A DNA stretch of 64,000 nucleotides from Planctomycetota bacterium. GTDB lineage: Bacteria > Planctomycetota > UBA8108 > SXIK01. Positions 1,318-46,732 of this stretch are shown piece by piece. Numbering within the stretch: the first letter of the stretch is position 1; each line of letters opens with the position of its first letter. The translations under genes and the position numbers were made by a program. The notes beneath the pieces were generated by a model. That model ran no database searches and was not told where the DNA came from. It saw nothing but the letters and a program-made list of their open reading frames with translations. The DNA is taken from contig CBDCXR010000004.1 in NCBI GenBank assembly GCA_965223845.1, positions 7,392,001-7,456,000 on the forward strand, in the 5' to 3' direction.

Positions 1318-2568
1318 ATGAATCGCGATTGCGTGAGCTCGGCTTGTCGCTTCGGCGGAGTACTCGTTCTCGTCGTCGTCGGCGGCGTGGCCGCGGGTCA
1401 AGAGGAGAAGACTCTCGAGTCGGCGAAGGGACGATTCGACGCGCTCCGACGAGAGTACAACGTCGCGAGCGGCTCAATTCGGAAGGCCGAAACGGACGAG
1501 AAGCGCAGCGAGGCCGCCGAGGGACTCCAACCGTTCGCGCTTCGGTTCCTCGAGCTGGCGGAGAGGCATCCCGCGGACCCCGACGTCTTCAAGATCCTTC
1601 GCAGTGCGATTCAGGCCTCGGTATCGGCGGACTCGCTCTCACTAACCGCGTGCGAGCTGAACCGGACCTCCCGACCGTCGGCGAGCCGCGATGAGGCCGC
1701 GCGCAAGATCGCAGCGTTCCTACGCCGCAACCATCTCCGAAGCGACAAGATCGTGCCCCTGTGCGAACGGATGCGTTACAGCGTCCGGTGGGAGTTCGCC
1801 GAGTTTCTCGAAACGGTCGTGGCGGAGAGCCCTCACGACGAAGTGCGCGCGGTCGCGACTCTCGCGCTCGCGCAGTTCCTCCGTGCGCGTCTCCACACGC
1901 GCGATCTCGTGGACGATCGACCGGAGTTGATCGAACGCTACGAATCACTGTTCGGCCGCGGGTACGTCCGAACGCTGCGAAAATCGTCCCGCCCGCAACT
2001 GGCCGCGCGGGTCGAAGCGCTGTTTGACAAGGCGGCGGCGTTCGGCGACGTCGAGCTTCCTCACGGTGGGACGGTCGGCGAGCAGGCGAAGGCGGCGCTC
2101 TACGTCCTTCGCCATCTTTCGATCGGTCGGGCGGCGCCGGAGATCGAAGGGGACGACCAAAACGGGAAGAAGTTTCGTCTGAGCGACTACCGGGGCAAGG
2201 TGGTGCTCCTCTATTTTTGGTCCGAGTTCTGACTCATGTGACGGGCCCAATGGCCCCACGAGCGGTCGCTCGTGAAACGACTTCGAGGGAAACCGTTCGC
2301 CTTGGTAGGCGTCAGCGTCGATCCGCCGGGGCGCGAGCCGGAACGACTGAGAGAGTTCATGGCGAAAGAGGACCTCAACTGGCGTACCTTCGTCGACGGC
2401 CGCGTGATCGCGCGGCAATGGAACTCTCCGGCGACGCCGACGTTTTACGTTCTCGATCCCGCGGGTACGATTCGACACAAGTGGGTGGGGAGCCCCGGCG
2501 AGAAGGCCATCGACGCTGCGCTCGAAAAACTGATCCGCGCGACGGAGGACGTCGAAGCCGGACGATGA
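1318..2568 (+). CDS. Exported TlpA/thioredoxin-fold selenoprotein with putative UxxU active site (416 aa; Sec codons 2230-2232 and 2239-2241)
   Basis: ORFs 1318..2232 and 2272..2568 are in the same frame; read-through gives APEIEG..LSDYRGKVVLLYFWSEF-U-LM-U-RAQWPHERSLVKRL..PTFYVLD, with both TGAs at the Cys positions of the TlpA WCxxC motif; N-terminal hydrophobic signal; selC in window. Confidence 0.85.
2243..2274 (+). promoter_or_regulatory. Candidate bacterial SECIS region (two tandem hairpins)
   Basis: GGGCC-caat-GGCCC (2243-2256) and CACGAGC-ggtc-GCTCGTG (2257-2274; G-led apical loop) immediately 3' of the UGA codons. Confidence 0.65.
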
Positions 2569-2636: not shown

Positions 2637-4319
2637 ATGTCTCGATCCTTCTTTCTGCTGTCCGCCGTCGTTCTCGCCATGCTCGGCCTTCCCGCTTCCG
2701 AACCGTTCGCCCAGGGCTTCGACCGCCCCGTCGACACGCGCTCGACTCGGTCGATGGTCCTCGGCCGACGCGGAATGGTGGCGACGAGTCAGCCCCTCGC
2801 CGCCGAAGCGGGTATCGCAATTCTCCGGCGCGGCGGGAATGCGTTCGATGCCGCGATCGCTACGGCCGCGGTCCTGAACGTCGTCGAGCCGATGTCGACC
2901 GGAATCGGGGGCGACGCCTTCGTCCTCGCCTGGCCGGCGAAGGAGAAGAAGCTCGTCGGCTTGAACGGGAGCGGGAGATCGTCGACGAAGGCGACGGTGG
3001 AGCACTTTCGCGCGCTTGGATTCGATCGCGTGCCGACCTTCGGGCCGCACTCCGTCACGGTTCCCGGCGCGTTTCACGCCTGGGTGACGCTCCACTCCCG
3101 CTACGGGAAGCTGCCGCTCGCGGACGTGCTCGCCGATGCGGTCCACTACGCCGAGCACGGGTTTCCGGTGAGCGAGATCATCGCCGCGAGCTGGGAAAGT
3201 GGACTGCGACACGCTAGCCGGCCTGAATTTGCACGTACGTACCTCGTCCGCGAGGGCGACGGATATCGCGCGCCGCGAACGGGCGAAGTGTTTCGGCAGC
3301 CGGATTTCGCGCGCACGCTCAAGCAGCTCGGTGAGAAAGGGATCGCCGGCTTCTACGAGGGAGAGCTCGCCGACCGCATCGCGTCGTACCTCAAAACCGA
3401 GGGGAGCCTCATCGCAAAAGAAGATCTCGAACGCCACTCGTCGACCTGGGTCGATCCGGTGAGTACCAGCTACAAGGGATTCGAGCTCGCCGAGCTGCCG
3501 CCGAACGGTCAAGGCATCGTCGCGCTCGAGATTCTCAACATCCTCGAGGGATTCGACGTCGCATCGCTCGGGCACAATTCGGCGGAGTACATCCATCTCT
3601 TCGCGGAGGCGAAGAAGCTCGCCTTTGCCGATCGGGACACCTACGTCACCGATCTCGACGTCCGGAAGCTTCCCGTCGAGACGCTGATCTCGAAGGAATA
3701 CGCCGCGAAGATGCGCGCGCGAATCGATCGCGCGAAAGCCGGCGTGTTCGCGAAGTCGACGCTCGAGGTCGGACCGGACACCGTCTACCTGTGCACCGCG
3801 GATTCCGAGGGCAACCTCGTCAGCTTCATCAACAGCATCTACTACGGCTTCGGGAGCGGACTCGTCGTCCCCGGCACCGGAATCTGCCTCCAGAATCGCG
3901 GCGCACTCTTCTCGCTCGAGCCGGAACACCTCAACCGCGTCGAGCCGTCGAAGCGTCCGCTCCACACGATCATTCCCGCGATGATCATGAAGGACGGTCG
4001 CCCGTGGTTTTGCTTCGGAGTCATGGGGGGCGACATGCAGCCTCAGGGGCACGTACAGGTCTTCCTCAATCTAGTCGAGTTCGGCATGAACCCGCAGGAA
4101 GCCGGAGAAGCGGCGCGCGTGCGGGAAGTCGACGGCGTCGTCGCGGTCGAGAGCGGGATCCCCGAGTCCGTGCGGGAGGCGCTCCGGCGAAAAGGACACC
4201 GCGTCGAGTCGCGTCCCGGAAGCTTCGGGGGGTATCAGGGGATCTTGGTCGATTGGGAGAGGCGGGTTTACTACGGGGCATCGGACAATCGGAAGGACGG
4301 GTGTGCTCTGGGGTACTGA
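2637..4319 (+). CDS. ggt: Gamma-glutamyltransferase, secreted
   Basis: GMVATSQPLA, GGNAFDAAIA, STGIGGDAF, PPNGQG, DTVYL nucleophile Thr, KRPLHTIIP, GVMGGDMQPQGH, DNRKDG; signal peptide from ATG 2637. Confidence 0.92.
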   Translation: MSRSFFLLSAVVLAMLGLPASEPFAQGFDRPVDTRSTRSMVLGRRGMVATSQPLAAEAGIAILRRGGNAFDAAIATAAVLNVVEPMSTGIGGDAFVLAWPAKEKKLVGLNGSGRSSTKATVEHFRALGFDRVPTFGPHSVTVPGAFHAWVTLHSRYGKLPLADVLADAVHYAEHGFPVSEIIAASWESGLRHASRPEFARTYLVREGDGYRAPRTGEVFRQPDFARTLKQLGEKGIAGFYEGELADRIASYLKTEGSLIAKEDLERHSSTWVDPVSTSYKGFELAELPPNGQGIVALEILNILEGFDVASLGHNSAEYIHLFAEAKKLAFADRDTYVTDLDVRKLPVETLISKEYAAKMRARIDRAKAGVFAKSTLEVGPDTVYLCTADSEGNLVSFINSIYYGFGSGLVVPGTGICLQNRGALFSLEPEHLNRVEPSKRPLHTIIPAMIMKDGRPWFCFGVMGGDMQPQGHVQVFLNLVEFGMNPQEAGEAARVREVDGVVAVESGIPESVREALRRKGHRVESRPGSFGGYQGILVDWERRVYYGASDNRKDGCALGY

Positions 4320-4377
4320 GGCCTTTCGGTCGCGGCAGGTGGCGGCGGGGCCTACGGCCCGCTCGATGGACGGTGGG

Positions 4378-4617
4378 GAGATCGCACACGAAGAGCGCGA
4401 AGAACCGCGAAGGAAGAGGAAGTAGAAAGTCATTGAGTGGGGCTGCAGGTTGTTTCATGCCGACGTTTGTGGGAGGTTTCGATGTCTCTGTCCTCGAGGT
4501 AGATCGAAGTTTCGAACGGAACATGATCGTCGAGACTCTGCTCCGCGCGCTCCGCGCTCCCGTCCAAATTCTCTTCGTCTTTCTTCGCGGTTCTTCGCGT
4601 TCTTCGTGTGCAATCTC
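4378..4617. repeat. Inverted-repeat element (about 45 bp arms, about 150 bp spacer)
   Basis: Left arm gagatcgcacacgaagagcgcgaagaaccgcgaaggaagaggaag (4378-4422) matches the reverse complement of 4573-4617 at 41 of 45 positions. Confidence 0.8.
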
Positions 4618-7600
4618 TCTTGTCGATCGGCTCGTCGCGGTTACGGCGATCGGCGTGTTCCTCGGTTTCGCCGGTGTGCCCGTCGCGAGCGCCTCGGACT
4701 TCCGAGTCGGAACCGCGCGCGTCGATGTCACCCCGACCGAGCCGCTCTACCTCGGCGGACACTCCGAACGGGAGATCGAGTTCGAGGGCATCGACAGTGA
4801 GCTCGCCGTGCGAGCGCTCGCGATCGAGGATCCATCCCGACGCGTGAGCGTGATCGTCTCGGTCGAGACCCTCGAGGTTCCCGCCTCGGTGCGCGAACGC
4901 ATTTGCGGATCGATACGCGGTTCGCTCGGAATCTATCGCGCGCGGGTCGCCGTGACCGCGACCGGGACGCACTCGGCGCCGCTTCTCGACGGCGTGCAGC
5001 CGCTCCCCGTCGAGTGGACGCCGCTTGCGCGCGAACGGCGCGCTCGGTACACGCGTCGCGTGACGCAGGCGGCGGTCGAGGCGGTTCGTTCAGCGGTCGA
5101 CGGACTCGCTCCCGCGTCGCTCGGCTGGACCTCGACTCCGTTCCGGCTCGAGACGGAATCGCCCTCCGGGAAAAACGTCGACCGTACGATTCGGTGTCTC
5201 GTTGCTCGATCGTCCGACCAGACGGTTCGCGCGCTTCTCTTCGCGAGCCCGATCTCTCCGCGAACGGCGCGTCCCGAGCGAAACCGCGTGAGCGGCGATT
5301 GGCCGGGCTCGGCGGCGCGGGCGCTCGAGGCGGAGCTCTCCGGCGCGATCGCGCTTCCGCTCGCGAGCTTCGATTCTCAGCCGGTCCCGGCCGCCGACCC
5401 GAGCGGGACATCCCCTCGAATTCTCGGTCGCTCGGTAGCAGCTGCCGTTTCGCTCGCGCTCGGCCGAGCGCGAGCGGACGGAGTGACGGCGATCGCGGGC
5501 GATCTCGACGCGCAGTTTGAGTACGTTCCGCTTCCCTTGGCCCCGCCGTCCACCGAGACGATGGCGGGGCCCGCGCAGCTCTGGGCGTTCGGAAACGGTC
5601 TTCGGCTCGTCTTTGTCGCGGGCGAGCACGCAAGGGAGACGGAGGCTGTTCTTCGCGATGCCGCCGGTGCGTCGGGGGCGTGGATCGTCACGCGCGCGAA
5701 TGCGGCGCTGGGAGCGATTCCACGCCCGGAAGCGGCCGAACGAGAAGGCGCCGCTCTGCCCGAGGGCCAAATCGGATCCGACCATCCCGCGCGGTGGTCG
5801 AAAGACGCGATCCCGACGCTCGCGCGCGCACTGACGCGGCTCGCGGAGAACGTCGGTCGCTCGCGCGTGAAACCACCGCCCGCGCTGTCGCCCGCGGAGG
5901 GTCTCGCGTCGCTCGAGACGCTCGACGGGCTCACCGTCGAACTCGTTGCGAGCGAGCCCGAGGTCGTCGATCCCGTCGCGATCGCATTCGACGCGGAGCT
6001 CCGCCTCTACGCGTGCGAAATGCGGGACTATCCGCTCGGTCCGGGCGACGGCCTCCCGGCCGATGGGCGAGTGCGGCGACTGCTCGACCGCGATCGCGAT
6101 GGCCGGTACGAGGAGTCGACGATCTTCGCCGACAAGGTGCCCTACGCCAACGGGATCGCTTGCTGGCAGGGCGGAGTCTTCGTCACGGCGGAAACGCAGA
6201 TTCTCTACCTCTCGGATTCGACCGGAGACGGGAGCGCCGACGTGCGGCGTGTCGTCGTCGACGGATTCAAGACCGGCAACTCGCAGCACCTTCTCAACAC
6301 TCTCGTTTGGGGTCCCGACCACCGTCTCTACGGTCTCGCGGGGGACGGCGGTTCGGTCCGCATCCCTTTCTTCCCCGATCGACCGCCGGTGAAGCTCGGC
6401 TGGACGAGCTTTCGTTTTGACCCTCGGACGGCGACGGTCGAGCCGGTGACGGGCGGGCGCGGCGGGTACGGAATCGCGTTCACGAAGTGGGGGAGTCGCT
6501 TCGTGTGCAGCAGCACGCGGCACGCGATCCACGTAGTCACCGAGGAGCGGTACCTCGATCGGACTCCGGGCGCACCGGCGCCCGACGTCCATCGCTTCGT
6601 GGCGAGCGATCGCCGCGTCGTGCCGGCGTCGCCGCGTCTCGAACGCTTCAACGATCCTTTCGACGTCGGAATGTTCTCGTCCGCGTGCGGCGTCCACATC
6701 TACGACGGAGACGCACTCCCCGAATCGTCGCGCGGGGGGTTCTTCGTGTGCGAGCCGGTGAGCAATCTCGTCCACCGCGCCGTGCTTCGTCCGCGCGGGG
6801 CGACGTTCACCGTCGAGCGAGTCGAGCCGAACCGCGAGTTCCTCGCGTCGACCGATCCGTGGTTTCGACCCGTGTCGTGTACGAGCGGCCCCGATGGCGC
6901 GCTCTACGTCGTCGACATGTACCGCGAGGTGATCGAGCACCCCGAGTGGATCCCGGCGGACGTGCAGCGCGAGTTCGACCTTCGCAGCGGCATGGATCGC
7001 GGCCGAATCTACCGAGTCTACCGGACGGACGAAAACGTCGCGGCGACCCCCCTTCGCGCGCAGAGGGTCGAAGAGCTAGCGCGCGAGCTTTCGAGTCGAA
7101 TCCGCTGGCGACGCGAGACCGCGGCGCGAAAGTTTCTCGAGCGCTCGGGGTCTGAGCACGAGGTCGAGGCGCTCGAACGAGAGCTCCGGTCTTCACCGGA
7201 TCCGCGGGCGCGCCGCGCCGCGCTCTACGTCCTCGAGGGACGCTCGGAGCTCGACGCGGGAGCGCTCGGGATCGCTCTCCGTGATCCGTCCGCGATCGTC
7301 CGCCGATCGGCCGTCCAGATCGCGGAGCGCGAATGGAAGGGCGACGCGCGCGATCGCACCGCGTCCGAGATCATTGCGCGTGCGATCGCCGCGATCGCGG
7401 AAGATCCGGAGCCGCAGATCCGCTTTCAAGTCGCCCTCAGTCTCGGTGACGCGCCGACGAAGTTTCGCCGTGATCCGCTCCGAAGAATCCTCGCGATCGA
7501 CGCCGGCGACGAGTGGACGCGCGCGGCTGTGCTCCAGTCCTGGCCCGGCGACGTCGCCCCACTCGCCGCGGTCGCGCTCGAGCGAATGAAGAACGGAATC

Positions 7601-8752
7601 GACGGCGGCGGGTCGCTCCTCCGCGACGTCGCGGCGCTCGCAGCGCATCGCGGAGATCGGGCGGACTCGAGGGCACTCCTCCAACTGCTCGCGAACGCGC
7701 CGTCCGGCGTCGATCGAGACGACGCGCTCGAAGTGGTGCTCGGGTCGAGCGGAGTCGACATCTCCCGCCTCTTCCCCGCGGAGAGTCCGACCGCCGTTCG
7801 CATCGCTGCGATCCTCGATGCGAAGGCCGAGGTCGCCGACGATCCCGATCTCCCCGCGGCGGAGCGTGCGCGCGCGCTCGGGTTCGTCGCGCTAGGACGC
7901 GGTGCGGCTGCCGTGGACCGTCTCGAACGCTTTCTCGACGCGCGCCAACCGAGGGAGCTGCAGCGAGCGGCCGTGAACGCGCTCGGTCGTGTTTCGGGCG
8001 AGGCGCGCGCGCGGGTTACGGCGGTCTTTCTCGCGCTCCGAGGCACACTCACACCGGAGATTCGCGCGGCGGCCTTCGACGTGCTTCTCGCTGATCGAGA
8101 GCGCGTCGCCGCCGTCGTCGACGCCCTCGAACGCGGCGATCTCTCGCTCGCCGAGCTGGGCGTTCGCAATCGCCAGCGTCTCGGGCAGACGCCGGATGAC
8201 GAGCTGCGGGCGCGTGTGAGCGCGCTCGTCGAGCGTTCGGGCGAGCGAGCGGCGCGCGAGGAAGTCGTCGAGCGCTATCGACGAGCCATCACGGCGCTGG
8301 ACACTCGGCCCGGGGACCGTGCGCGCGGCGCGGAGTTCTTCAGGGCGAAGTGTTCCACTTGCCATCTGCGCGGGGGCGTCGGCGAAGCTGTCGGCCCGGA
8401 TCTCGACGGCACCCATCAGAAATCGATCGACGCCCTCCTCATCGACATTCTGGATCCGAATCGAGGAGCCGAAGCACGCTACGCGGGCTACTCGGTCGCG
8501 ACGGCGAACGGCGACATCGTGAGCGGCCTTCTCCTCGCGGAGACTCCCGCCGCGATCATCGTGCGAAGTCCCGGGGGCGACACGCACCGCATTTCGCGCG
8601 CTGACGTCGAGGATCTTTCGAGCACGGGAATGAGCCTCATGCCGGAAGGGCTCGAAGAGGAGCTCGCGCCGCGCGACGTTCGGGATGTGATCGAGTTCTT
8701 GCGTGGACCGGTCAGCGAATCGGGTCGTCCCGGCGCGCCGAATCGCCCGTGA
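4523..8752 (+). CDS. PVC-type heme-binding CxxCH protein (propeller dehydrogenase-like + HEAT + cytochrome c) with N-terminal ceramidase-like domain; start uncertain
   Basis: DFRVGTARVDVTP..LGG N-domain; VELVASEPEVVDPVAIAFD, WFRPV, GPDGALYVVDMYREVIEHP, RGRIYRV; C-terminal CSTCH, GPDL, SLMPEGLE. The upstream part of ORF 3791 overlaps ggt and is spurious. Confidence 0.85.
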   Translation: MIVETLLRALRAPVQILFVFLRGSSRSSCAISLVDRLVAVTAIGVFLGFAGVPVASASDFRVGTARVDVTPTEPLYLGGHSEREIEFEGIDSELAVRALAIEDPSRRVSVIVSVETLEVPASVRERICGSIRGSLGIYRARVAVTATGTHSAPLLDGVQPLPVEWTPLARERRARYTRRVTQAAVEAVRSAVDGLAPASLGWTSTPFRLETESPSGKNVDRTIRCLVARSSDQTVRALLFASPISPRTARPERNRVSGDWPGSAARALEAELSGAIALPLASFDSQPVPAADPSGTSPRILGRSVAAAVSLALGRARADGVTAIAGDLDAQFEYVPLPLAPPSTETMAGPAQLWAFGNGLRLVFVAGEHARETEAVLRDAAGASGAWIVTRANAALGAIPRPEAAEREGAALPEGQIGSDHPARWSKDAIPTLARALTRLAENVGRSRVKPPPALSPAEGLASLETLDGLTVELVASEPEVVDPVAIAFDAELRLYACEMRDYPLGPGDGLPADGRVRRLLDRDRDGRYEESTIFADKVPYANGIACWQGGVFVTAETQILYLSDSTGDGSADVRRVVVDGFKTGNSQHLLNTLVWGPDHRLYGLAGDGGSVRIPFFPDRPPVKLGWTSFRFDPRTATVEPVTGGRGGYGIAFTKWGSRFVCSSTRHAIHVVTEERYLDRTPGAPAPDVHRFVASDRRVVPASPRLERFNDPFDVGMFSSACGVHIYDGDALPESSRGGFFVCEPVSNLVHRAVLRPRGATFTVERVEPNREFLASTDPWFRPVSCTSGPDGALYVVDMYREVIEHPEWIPADVQREFDLRSGMDRGRIYRVYRTDENVAATPLRAQRVEELARELSSRIRWRRETAARKFLERSGSEHEVEALERELRSSPDPRARRAALYVLEGRSELDAGALGIALRDPSAIVRRSAVQIAEREWKGDARDRTASEIIARAIAAIAEDPEPQIRFQVALSLGDAPTKFRRDPLRRILAIDAGDEWTRAAVLQSWPGDVAPLAAVALERMKNGIDGGGSLLRDVAALAAHRGDRADSRALLQLLANAPSGVDRDDALEVVLGSSGVDISRLFPAESPTAVRIAAILDAKAEVADDPDLPAAERARALGFVALGRGAAAVDRLERFLDARQPRELQRAAVNALGRVSGEARARVTAVFLALRGTLTPEIRAAAFDVLLADRERVAAVVDALERGDLSLAELGVRNRQRLGQTPDDELRARVSALVERSGERAAREEVVERYRRAITALDTRPGDRARGAEFFRAKCSTCHLRGGVGEAVGPDLDGTHQKSIDALLIDILDPNRGAEARYAGYSVATANGDIVSGLLLAETPAAIIVRSPGGDTHRISRADVEDLSSTGMSLMPEGLEEELAPRDVRDVIEFLRGPVSESGRPGAPNRP

Positions 8753-46634: not shown

Positions 46635-46732
46635 TGGCGGGAGTGCATGGGAATCGAACCCACCTACGACGTTGTTCGCGCCGCACCAAGGATTTGAAGT
46701 CCCGGAGGTCCACCAGGAACCTACTCACTCCC
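46635..46732 (-). tRNA. selC: tRNA-Sec (anticodon TCA), 98 nt
   Basis: GGGAGTG...GGACTTCAAATCC anticodon arm; 6-bp D stem; long variable arm; GTGGGTTCGATTCCCAT T arm; G73 discriminator and encoded CCA. Confidence 0.95.

Follow-up and report, generated by a model that had tools for sequence, protein, structure and literature searches.

Introduction

Are two in-frame TGA codons, separated by only two codons, damage to a bacterial redox gene, or are both of them read as selenocysteine (Sec) in a single active site? This question is raised by positions 1318–2568 of a 64,000-nucleotide (nt) stretch from a Planctomycetota bacterium (GTDB lineage Bacteria; Planctomycetota; UBA8108; SXIK01), which corresponds to positions 7,392,001 to 7,456,000 of the forward strand of contig CBDCXR010000004.1 in GenBank assembly GCA_965223845.1 and is hereafter called the window. 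A preliminary description, made from the letters alone, proposed that this segment hides an exported TlpA-like selenoprotein with a U-x-x-U active site (U, Sec; x, any residue). In this study we followed up the proposal by computational analysis. The gene is real, and it very probably encodes an exported thioredoxin-fold redox protein in which both active-site cysteines are written as UGA, and one RNA hairpin, a selenocysteine insertion sequence (SECIS), appears to serve both of them.

Two-Sec redox motifs have long been treated as near-unique; the count given in a passage of a 2016 paper included one other case (PMC4989117). The preliminary description likewise held UxxU to be rare and known mainly from the SelL family. 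This view does not stand, since the passages on selenoprotein families in two reviews (PMC13188914, 2026; PMC9312934, 2022) list several UxxU families: a peroxiredoxin (Prx)-like class, named 'Prx-like thiol:disulfide oxidoreductase' (PF00578, UxxC/UxxU, 1~2 Sec, 'predicted with high confidence'), for which both refer to Kryukov & Gladyshev 2004, a metal-binding protein and the FmdB family. By the definition in those passages, the window gene is of the PF00578 UxxC/UxxU kind and is less rare than had been supposed; the principle is unchanged, the category already being in the reviews. What the locus adds is a large, old and stable bacterial clade carrying a two-Sec motif. The family is routinely mis-annotated in Planctomycetota and Verrucomicrobiota because gene callers cut it at the first TGA, and once annotated correctly, many genomes of both groups would regain an exported redox enzyme.

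The pair of TGA codons is a conserved trait of the family

From the ATG at 1318 the frame is free of stops, besides the two internal TGAs, until the TGA at 2566–2568. The peptide around the internal codons reads ..VVLLYFWSEF-U-L-M-U-RAQWPHERSLVKRL.., exactly as the preliminary description had it, and its statement that the frame is intact up to 2568 was equally accurate. Gene calling with translation table 11 splits the frame into 1318..2232 (304 amino acids, aa) and a 98-aa remainder at 2272..2568; such a split had been predicted, and public databases indeed hold stumps of the 304-aa type. The elements of the gene, together with the tRNA gene discussed below, are as follows.

1318..2568, + strand: whole double-Sec gene, 416 codons and a TGA stop, with two in-frame TGA codons read as Sec
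1318..1398, + strand: putative signal peptide or N-terminal anchor, residues 1–27
1399..2103, + strand: N-terminal all-alpha helical-repeat domain, residues 28–262 (235 residues)
2122..2565, + strand: ResA/TlpA-like thioredoxin-fold domain, residues 269–416
2230..2232, + strand: UGA codon 305, first active-site position (Sec)
2239..2241, + strand: UGA codon 308, second active-site position (Sec)
2243..2256, + strand: small hairpin GGGCC-CAAU-GGCCC, behind the second UGA and upstream of the SECIS
2257..2274, + strand: SECIS minihelix CACGAGC-GGUC-GCUCGUG, loop at 2264–2267, encoded by the conserved peptide H-E-R-S-L-V
2437–2439, + strand: cis-Pro-type Pro374, invariant in alignment A3
2566..2568, + strand: true stop, TGA; orthologues terminate at the same place with TAA, TAG or TGA
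46635..46732, − strand: tRNA-Sec, anticodon UCA, found by ARAGORN both in the window and in a scan of the complete genome

When 5.8 billion proteins were searched, the 120 best relatives were listed, and 116 of these stop exactly at the first TGA, three residues past a conserved Trp. One stops at the position of the second TGA (C-P-T), two are full-length with W-C-G-P-C, and the remaining one, P0098, is considered below. In a second search, of 1.84 billion cluster representatives, 4672 relatives were found at E <= 0.001; the best 150 of them comprise 127 truncated entries (126 cut at the first TGA and one, at C-P-T, at the second), three full-length CxxC forms and 20 other fragments. An ending other than GxW, which is characteristic of the double-Sec clade, is seen in 55 of these 150. 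Since nearly all relatives end at the first TGA, the stop characterises the family as a whole, and what the databases contain are stumps, typically about 290 residues long.

The reading beyond the stump was taken from genomic DNA. When 185,579 species genomes were scanned with an alignment built from the stumps, 173 relatives emerged, of which the best 80 were retained. They include 48 close orthologue loci (L043–L090; 37 records from Planctomycetota, nine from Verrucomicrobiota and two with odd bin labels), and the orthologues align with the window protein over residues ~12–412. TGA-xx-TGA is present in 46 of the 48 loci, TGT-xx-TGA in one (L079) and TGC-xx-TGC in one (L088). Codon 305 is accordingly TGA in 46 loci and TGT or TGC in two, and codon 308 is TGA in 47 and TGC in one. 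In a six-frame search of 401 genomes of the phylum, matches were found in 88; among the matches listed, nearly all have one TGA, five have none and three have two, namely the window gene, G128 (47% identity) and G331 (40%). Both of the latter carry U-L-T-U, and L050 is apparently the same sequence as G128. The tabulation of codons at both positions, which the preliminary description had recommended, thus returned the TGA pair in 46 of 48 loci and in two further genomes.

Cys forms exist at either column. Position 1 is Cys in L079, L088, P0121, P0143 and P0127, and position 2 is Cys in L088, in P0127 (a full-length all-Cys form, C-L-T-C) and in the whole U-G-P-C sister clade, so that both columns show Sec/Cys pairs. 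The dipeptide between the two TGAs is Leu-Thr in 30 of the 48 loci and Pro-Thr in seven, with scattered others. The Leu-Met of the window gene, which had been called unusual, is indeed confined to the window genome; the norm from which it departs is Leu-Thr.

The single-TGA genes form a clade of 29 genes with the motif DFWG-x-W-U-G-P-C, which is widespread in the phylum. We built a maximum likelihood tree of 74 rows (quick search, LG+G4), leaving out L050, L072, L084, L087, L089, L090 and L091 as duplicates or as truncated or broken sequences. A branch with 100% support splits the 29 UxxC rows from the 43 UxxU rows together with the CxxU and CxxC rows, and the CxxU and CxxC forms are nested among the UxxU genes. 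This nesting indicates that the double-Sec state is old and that the Cys forms are secondary. The sister clade shares with the window clade its architecture, putative signal peptide, N-terminal helical domain and SECIS at the same place; it differs in having Cys at the second position within a classical W-C/U-G-P-C motif and in its separate, fully supported branch. It is probably what the literature describes as 'thiol-disulfide isomerase-like / TlpA-like UxxC' selenoproteins.

Both types coexist in the window genome, which has one double-Sec gene and one single-Sec sister gene. The latter, at G000:C4:339063-340223, reads FWGHW-U-G-P-C and shares the GAGC-GGUC-GCUC hairpin; this 12-mer occurs 13 more times in the genome, never in such a context.

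The part of the gene behind the SECIS evolves as coding sequence. Across 43 double-Sec genes, differences at codon positions 1, 2 and 3 are 0.325, 0.256 and 0.508, respectively, and the protein alignment is conserved to the C-terminal end, including the T-P loop. The codon-position pattern and the conserved C-terminal part argue for purifying selection rather than a decaying 3' remnant; the relaxed selection that the preliminary description had named as a sign of a pseudogene was looked for in these genes, and a coding pattern was found instead.

Several members depart from the common form. L089 and L090, identical loci of metagenome-assembled genomes with a frameshift shortly after the SECIS, and L091, in which the motif is broken, are decayed copies or assembly errors within the family. 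The double-Sec genes L067, L068 and L076 and the protein P0030 are much longer (550–818 aa) or stand behind a BamB/PQQ-like domain, so extra domains have been fused on in some lineages. L063 and L074 bear the bin labels Alcaligenaceae and Bifidobacterium and nest among Gemmataceae-type sequences, which probably reflects mis-binning rather than transfer. In the sister clade, L027 and L029 are tandem genes, and gene callers fuse the post-TGA remainder of the first to the second.

An invariant hairpin lies behind the UGA codons

The SECIS minihelix is separated from the first UGA by 31 nt and from the second by 22 nt. According to the relevant part of PMC13188914, a bacterial SECIS (bSECIS) has a loop of 3–9 nt with G in its first two positions, a stem of 4–16 base pairs (bp), a UGA spacing of 16–37 nt and a minimum free energy (MFE) at or below -7.5 kcal/mol. 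The hairpin agrees with this model for both UGAs, in its loop (GGUC), its stem of 6–7 bp, its spacing and its energy, which for the isolated hairpin is -10.5 kcal/mol with 7 bp and -7.9 kcal/mol with 6 bp.

The stronger evidence comes from codon usage. All 45 distinct double-Sec genes have identical letters at positions 2260–2273 (GAG-CGG-TCG-CTC-GT), even at synonymous sites, save for GAG/GGG variants; GGG replaces GAG in five of the 45 and retains a G-U pair. CGG-TCG-CTC stands at the SECIS site in all 45 genes, whereas elsewhere in the same genes these codons account for 27.7%, 27.1% and 28.5% of the Arg, Ser and Leu codons, respectively. The Val codon that follows CTC is written with all four synonyms. 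Fixed synonymous codons to this extent are beyond what protein-level selection can explain and show a constraint at the RNA level. Across 75 aligned sequences, the six inner pairs form in 74–75 and the outer C-G pair in 40.

Of the 29 sister-clade genes, 28 carry this hairpin at an unchanged distance from the motif, as does the CxxU gene; in the all-Cys L088 it has decayed. Because an identical hairpin accompanies U-G-P-C, C-P-T-U and UxxU, it serves position 1 alone, position 2 alone or both. The family therefore provides a natural test set for one bacterial SECIS acting at two spacings (31 and 22 nt). The small hairpin in front of the SECIS has an energy of -8.5 kcal/mol; 73.9% of its cells are paired among the 75 sequences, and three of its five pairs change on both sides. 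The evidence for it is weaker than that for the SECIS.

The genome encodes the Sec machinery

The tRNA-Sec that the preliminary description had noticed in the window was recovered by ARAGORN at 46635–46732 on the minus strand. The genes selA, selB and selD, which it had advised looking for, are all present in the genome and score above their curated cut-offs (536, 320 and 308 bits, respectively). selA (G000:C4:7458128-7459498) lies 2.1 kb past the end of the window and ~19 kb from the tRNA-Sec, and selB and selD are on the same contig, far from the window. The genomes G128 and G331 also have selA and selD.

In the window genome selD (G000:C4:5317241-5318161) lies inside an 809-aa open frame without a TGA, which may represent a fusion comparable to the Ndh-SelD fusions that a passage of PMC2398784 describes. 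The selD genes of G128 and G331 contain an in-frame TGA, and selD is thus itself a selenoprotein gene there. ARAGORN also labelled two tRNAs with a CTA anticodon as tRNA-Pyl (G000:C4:1643846-1643919 on the complementary strand and 6791124-6791203); these may be false calls or amber-reading tRNAs.

The read-through protein has a thioredoxin fold behind a helical domain

AlphaFold2 modelling of the read-through protein with a 40-sequence alignment gave a mean predicted local distance difference test (pLDDT) value of 91.2 and a predicted template modelling (pTM) score of 0.87. Residues 1–30 are hydrophobic and have pLDDT values below 60. A hydrophobic N-terminal stretch (11-residue Kyte-Doolittle mean >= 2.0 within the first ~45 residues) is found in 40 of 40 aligned members, from which we infer export; the signal peptide that the preliminary description had claimed stays putative.

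The C-terminal domain has matches to the Pfam models AhpC-TSA, Redoxin and Thioredoxin_8 on residues 269–399, spanning both TGAs. PF00578 (AhpC/TSA) scores 81.1 bits against a cut-off of 26 on residues 269–387, and a Pfam scan at E <= 0.01 returned only PF00578, PF08534, PF13905 and PF02630. PDB profile matches of the domain are 2lrn, ResA and TlpA, and Foldseek aligned residues 269–416 with 4nmu and 2h1b at a target-normalised TM score (TMt) of 0.87–0.90 and a root-mean-square deviation (rmsd) of 1.6–1.9 Å. With regard to the earlier label 'TlpA/ResA-like', the fold is therefore well chosen; the family is not, the scores lying far below the NCBIfam cut-offs for TlpA (NF047696, 45.3 versus 230) and ResA (NF002854, 55.7 versus 170), and we rejected equivalence to either. 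The NCBIfam selenoprotein models NF041054 (WAxxUGC_long; 40.8 versus 300) and NF053656 (redoxin_TUGYCR; 21.7 versus 100) were likewise rejected.

The long helical N-terminal domain foreseen in the preliminary description is reproduced by the model, which predicts 13 helices for residues 28–262 and, when this domain is modelled alone, reaches a pLDDT of 95.0. The domain is common to the single-Sec sister clade. It has no match in Pfam or NCBIfam and no Foldseek match in the PDB at E <= 0.001; the best sub-threshold matches are designed helical repeats, HEAT and TPR structures with TM scores <= 0.45.

Sec/Cys pairs at both columns, a conserved SECIS, the Sec machinery and purifying selection thus bear out the central proposal, one thioredoxin-fold selenoprotein with U-x-x-U.

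Observations that weigh against a double-Sec gene

A number of observations count against this interpretation. Covariation in the SECIS is nearly absent, changes on both sides occurring in one of its seven pairs among the 75 sequences. This is explained by the invariance of the helix, and with covariation near zero it is the invariance of synonymous sites that carries the argument for the SECIS. When 72-nt stretches were folded by MFE, the GGUC hairpin appeared in only 20 of the 45 sequences, the window's own not among them. There a competing long stem, in which the UGA region pairs with the loop, wins the fold; this stem seems to us less likely, as its 5' strand is free to vary and the invariant CTC codon would be left unexplained. 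Rfam gave no match in 2150–2400, just two chance hits to microRNA models (E 0.38 and 0.95). In E. coli the spacing between UGA and SECIS is said to be strict, so a single hairpin that serves UGAs 9 nt apart may recode one of the two poorly.

Individual sequences and the context of the gene add to these points. In L040 (G240), a sister-clade gene, the TGA is kept, the peptide is H-E-K-T-L-V and the GGUC hairpin is absent from its normal position; the gene may be in decay or rely on a different SECIS. In P0098 both columns lack Cys and Sec alike. This protein starts with the post-TGA remainder of an upstream gene, and it is its second domain that lacks both Cys. Logan contigs from four runs (two samples of one study) reproduce 1318–2568 with 0 differences; they may share their data with the assembly, possibly being its source, and so do not count as independent support. 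The gene shares no widely conserved neighbour: the largest cluster of shared flanking open reading frames (ORFs) spans four loci, and the gamma-glutamyltranspeptidase gene (GGT) that follows the window gene is adjacent in 0 of 78 related loci. Operon context was therefore rejected as a clue to function. Finally, the insertion of selenium, the expression and the export of the protein are predictions from DNA.

Proposed decoding, function and alternatives

In the decoding that we propose, SelB with Sec-tRNA(Sec) would bind the GGUC minihelix and both UGAs would be recoded co-translationally, the single SECIS inside the coding sequence (2257–2274) serving each of them as the ribosome approaches. 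The third TGA (2566), with no hairpin behind it, would terminate translation. The resulting motif Sec305-Leu-Met-Sec308, at the start of helix 1, would form an extracytoplasmic redox centre in which two selenols cycle with a diselenide, and the protein would act as a thiol-diselenide oxidoreductase.

Regarding the direction of electron flow, we lean, by a little better than an even chance, towards a fast and strongly reducing protein that would act on disulfides or oxidised cysteines of client proteins outside the cytoplasm. It would be recharged by a CcdA/DsbD-type membrane electron carrier, and its client would be chosen by the helical domain. A reductase is favoured because both the sister clade and the closest folds belong to the reductase type, and because seleno-variants of thioredoxin-fold proteins are reported to be more reducing and faster. 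A DsbD_TM-type gene is present in the genome, not adjacent to the double-Sec gene, and could supply the electrons. A bolder version, and an unlikely one on present evidence, starts from the second Sec, which is kept in 46 of 48 orthologues across two phyla though the sister clade in these genomes manages with a selenenylsulfide (UxxC). This would suggest a need for a true diselenide or bis-selenolate centre, which could be an unusually low-potential, oxygen-tolerant periplasmic reductant or a soft-metal or selenium-handling site, brought by the helical domain to a client of its own, in an undescribed periplasmic redox route specific to the Planctomycetota, Verrucomicrobiota and Chlamydiota (PVC) group. 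The family also poses the question of what advantage, in bacteria that are mostly aerobic, an extracytoplasmic diselenide has over a selenenylsulfide.

The same protein might instead perform another chemistry, as an oxidase or isomerase whose readily re-oxidised diselenide would make disulfides, as a peroxidase-like scavenger whose second Sec resolves a selenenic acid, or as a site for soft metals (Cu, Hg) or selenium; we regard this as quite possible, though less likely than a reductase. A passage of PMC2397514 notes the very low redox potentials of diselenides and the difficulty of reducing them; the family lists in PMC13188914 and PMC9312934 contain a UxxU metal-binding selenoprotein; TlpA serves copper-centre assembly, according to the titles of PDB entries 4txo and 4txv; and the best Pfam match of the window protein is AhpC/TSA. 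Against this, the solved structures nearest in fold are those of two reductases, ResA and TlpA; the sister clade carries W-U-G-P-C, the classical motif of reductases; and no metal-related neighbour is conserved. A peroxiredoxin in particular (T/SxxC/U) was considered and rejected: the Ser or Thr three residues before the active site is not conserved, position -3 being Ser in the window gene but S, M, Q, L, V, N, A or F across orthologues.

A second alternative concerns yield. Termination might dominate, so that the gene mostly produces the helical domain as a 304- or 307-residue protein, the full-length form being a minor, selenium-dependent product and the UGAs a selenium-sensing switch. Two successive recoding events multiply their inefficiencies, and the helical domain alone is predicted to fold confidently (pLDDT 95). 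Against this, the thioredoxin-fold domain begins ~35 residues before the first UGA (Pfam residue 269), so a product ending at codon 305 would contain only a fragment of the fold; moreover, the region downstream is conserved at the protein level across 43 genes, and the full-length model packs both domains together (pTM 0.87). We consider dominant termination improbable, and it would in any case be compatible with a double-Sec protein, since it bears on yield only.

Alternatively, one or both UGAs could be read as Cys by a SECIS-dependent tRNA of the tRNA(ReC) or selC* type, giving a CxxU, UxxC or CxxC protein. According to the part of PMC13582414 (2026) that deals with these tRNAs, tRNA(ReC)-like genes occur in ~56% of UXXU-bearing genomes, where either UGA may then be Cys, and are commoner in genomes with UXXU hydrogenases. 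In the 7.9-Mb window genome, however, ARAGORN found a single tRNA with a UCA anticodon, which is the tRNA-Sec of the window. Its 3' end is G followed by CCA, as expected for tRNA-Sec; the Cys-accepting type has U before CCA. Both TGAs are also kept in 46 of 48 orthologues, though one base change would give Cys, and we consider decoding as Cys very unlikely.

That the TGAs are damage to an ordinary CxxC gene, or an artefact of assembly or sequencing, has virtually no chance of being correct and is already refuted as far as sequence data go: decay does occur in the family (L089 and L090, frameshifted after the motif, and the broken L091), but the same TGA pair in the orthologues and in two more genomes, the downstream coding pattern, the invariant SECIS and four identical run-level assemblies stand against it.

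Comparison with known selenoproteins

The window protein and the Prx-like class of the reviews have in common PF00578, Sec at the CxxC positions and a SECIS in the coding region, and both are known as predictions. Compared by description only, the window clade differs in that UxxU is a fixed, not a sporadic, feature of an entire PVC clade, and the window protein has a 235-residue helical-repeat domain in front. ResA of Bacillus and TlpA of Bradyrhizobium resemble it in fold, in the position of the active site at the start of helix 1, in the cis-Pro loop and in extracytoplasmic targeting, which for the window protein is presumed; unlike them, it has Sec at both positions, no W-C-x-P-C and the extra helical domain.

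SelL, as set out in passages of PMC2397514, PMC2398784 and PMC4989117, is a Prx-like protein whose UxxU motif is written with two UGAs two codons apart, both served by one SECIS; a diselenide has been proposed for it. The Global Ocean Sampling (GOS) study, in the part concerned, placed UxxU in its 'Prx-like 2' group, where SelL and its bacterial relatives are filed and a faint likeness to PF04592 is noted (PMC2398784). The window protein shares with SelL a UxxU motif in a thioredoxin-like fold and a single SECIS for two UGAs, a likeness in working and not in descent. Membership in SelL or 'Prx-like 2' was rejected, as the Pfam scan gave no PF04592 match and the architecture is different; SelL was set apart by its published description. 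PrxL.1 of Lokiarchaeota, as described in a passage of Mariotti et al. 2016 (PMC4989117), has a Prx-like redox box with both Cys replaced by Sec and single-Sec paralogues beside it. From that account, it differs from the window protein in being archaeal, small and single-domain, with its SECIS after the coding sequence.

We could not find the window clade as such described in print, with its PVC distribution, near-universal UxxU, helical domain and invariant H-E-R-S-L-V hairpin shared with the sister clade; the supplements of PMC4807772 (S9 Table) and PMC2398784 (Figure S1, Dataset S1) might hold it.

Neighbouring genes in the window

The GGT gene occupies 2637–4319 on the + strand and starts 69 nt past the double-Sec gene. 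Its product matches PF01019 with 511 bits and has a signal-like N-terminus. A long open frame at 3791–8752 on the same strand matches DUF7133 (405 bits) and contains a weak cytochrome-c-like stretch near its end; because its 5' part overlaps the GGT gene, its true start lies later.

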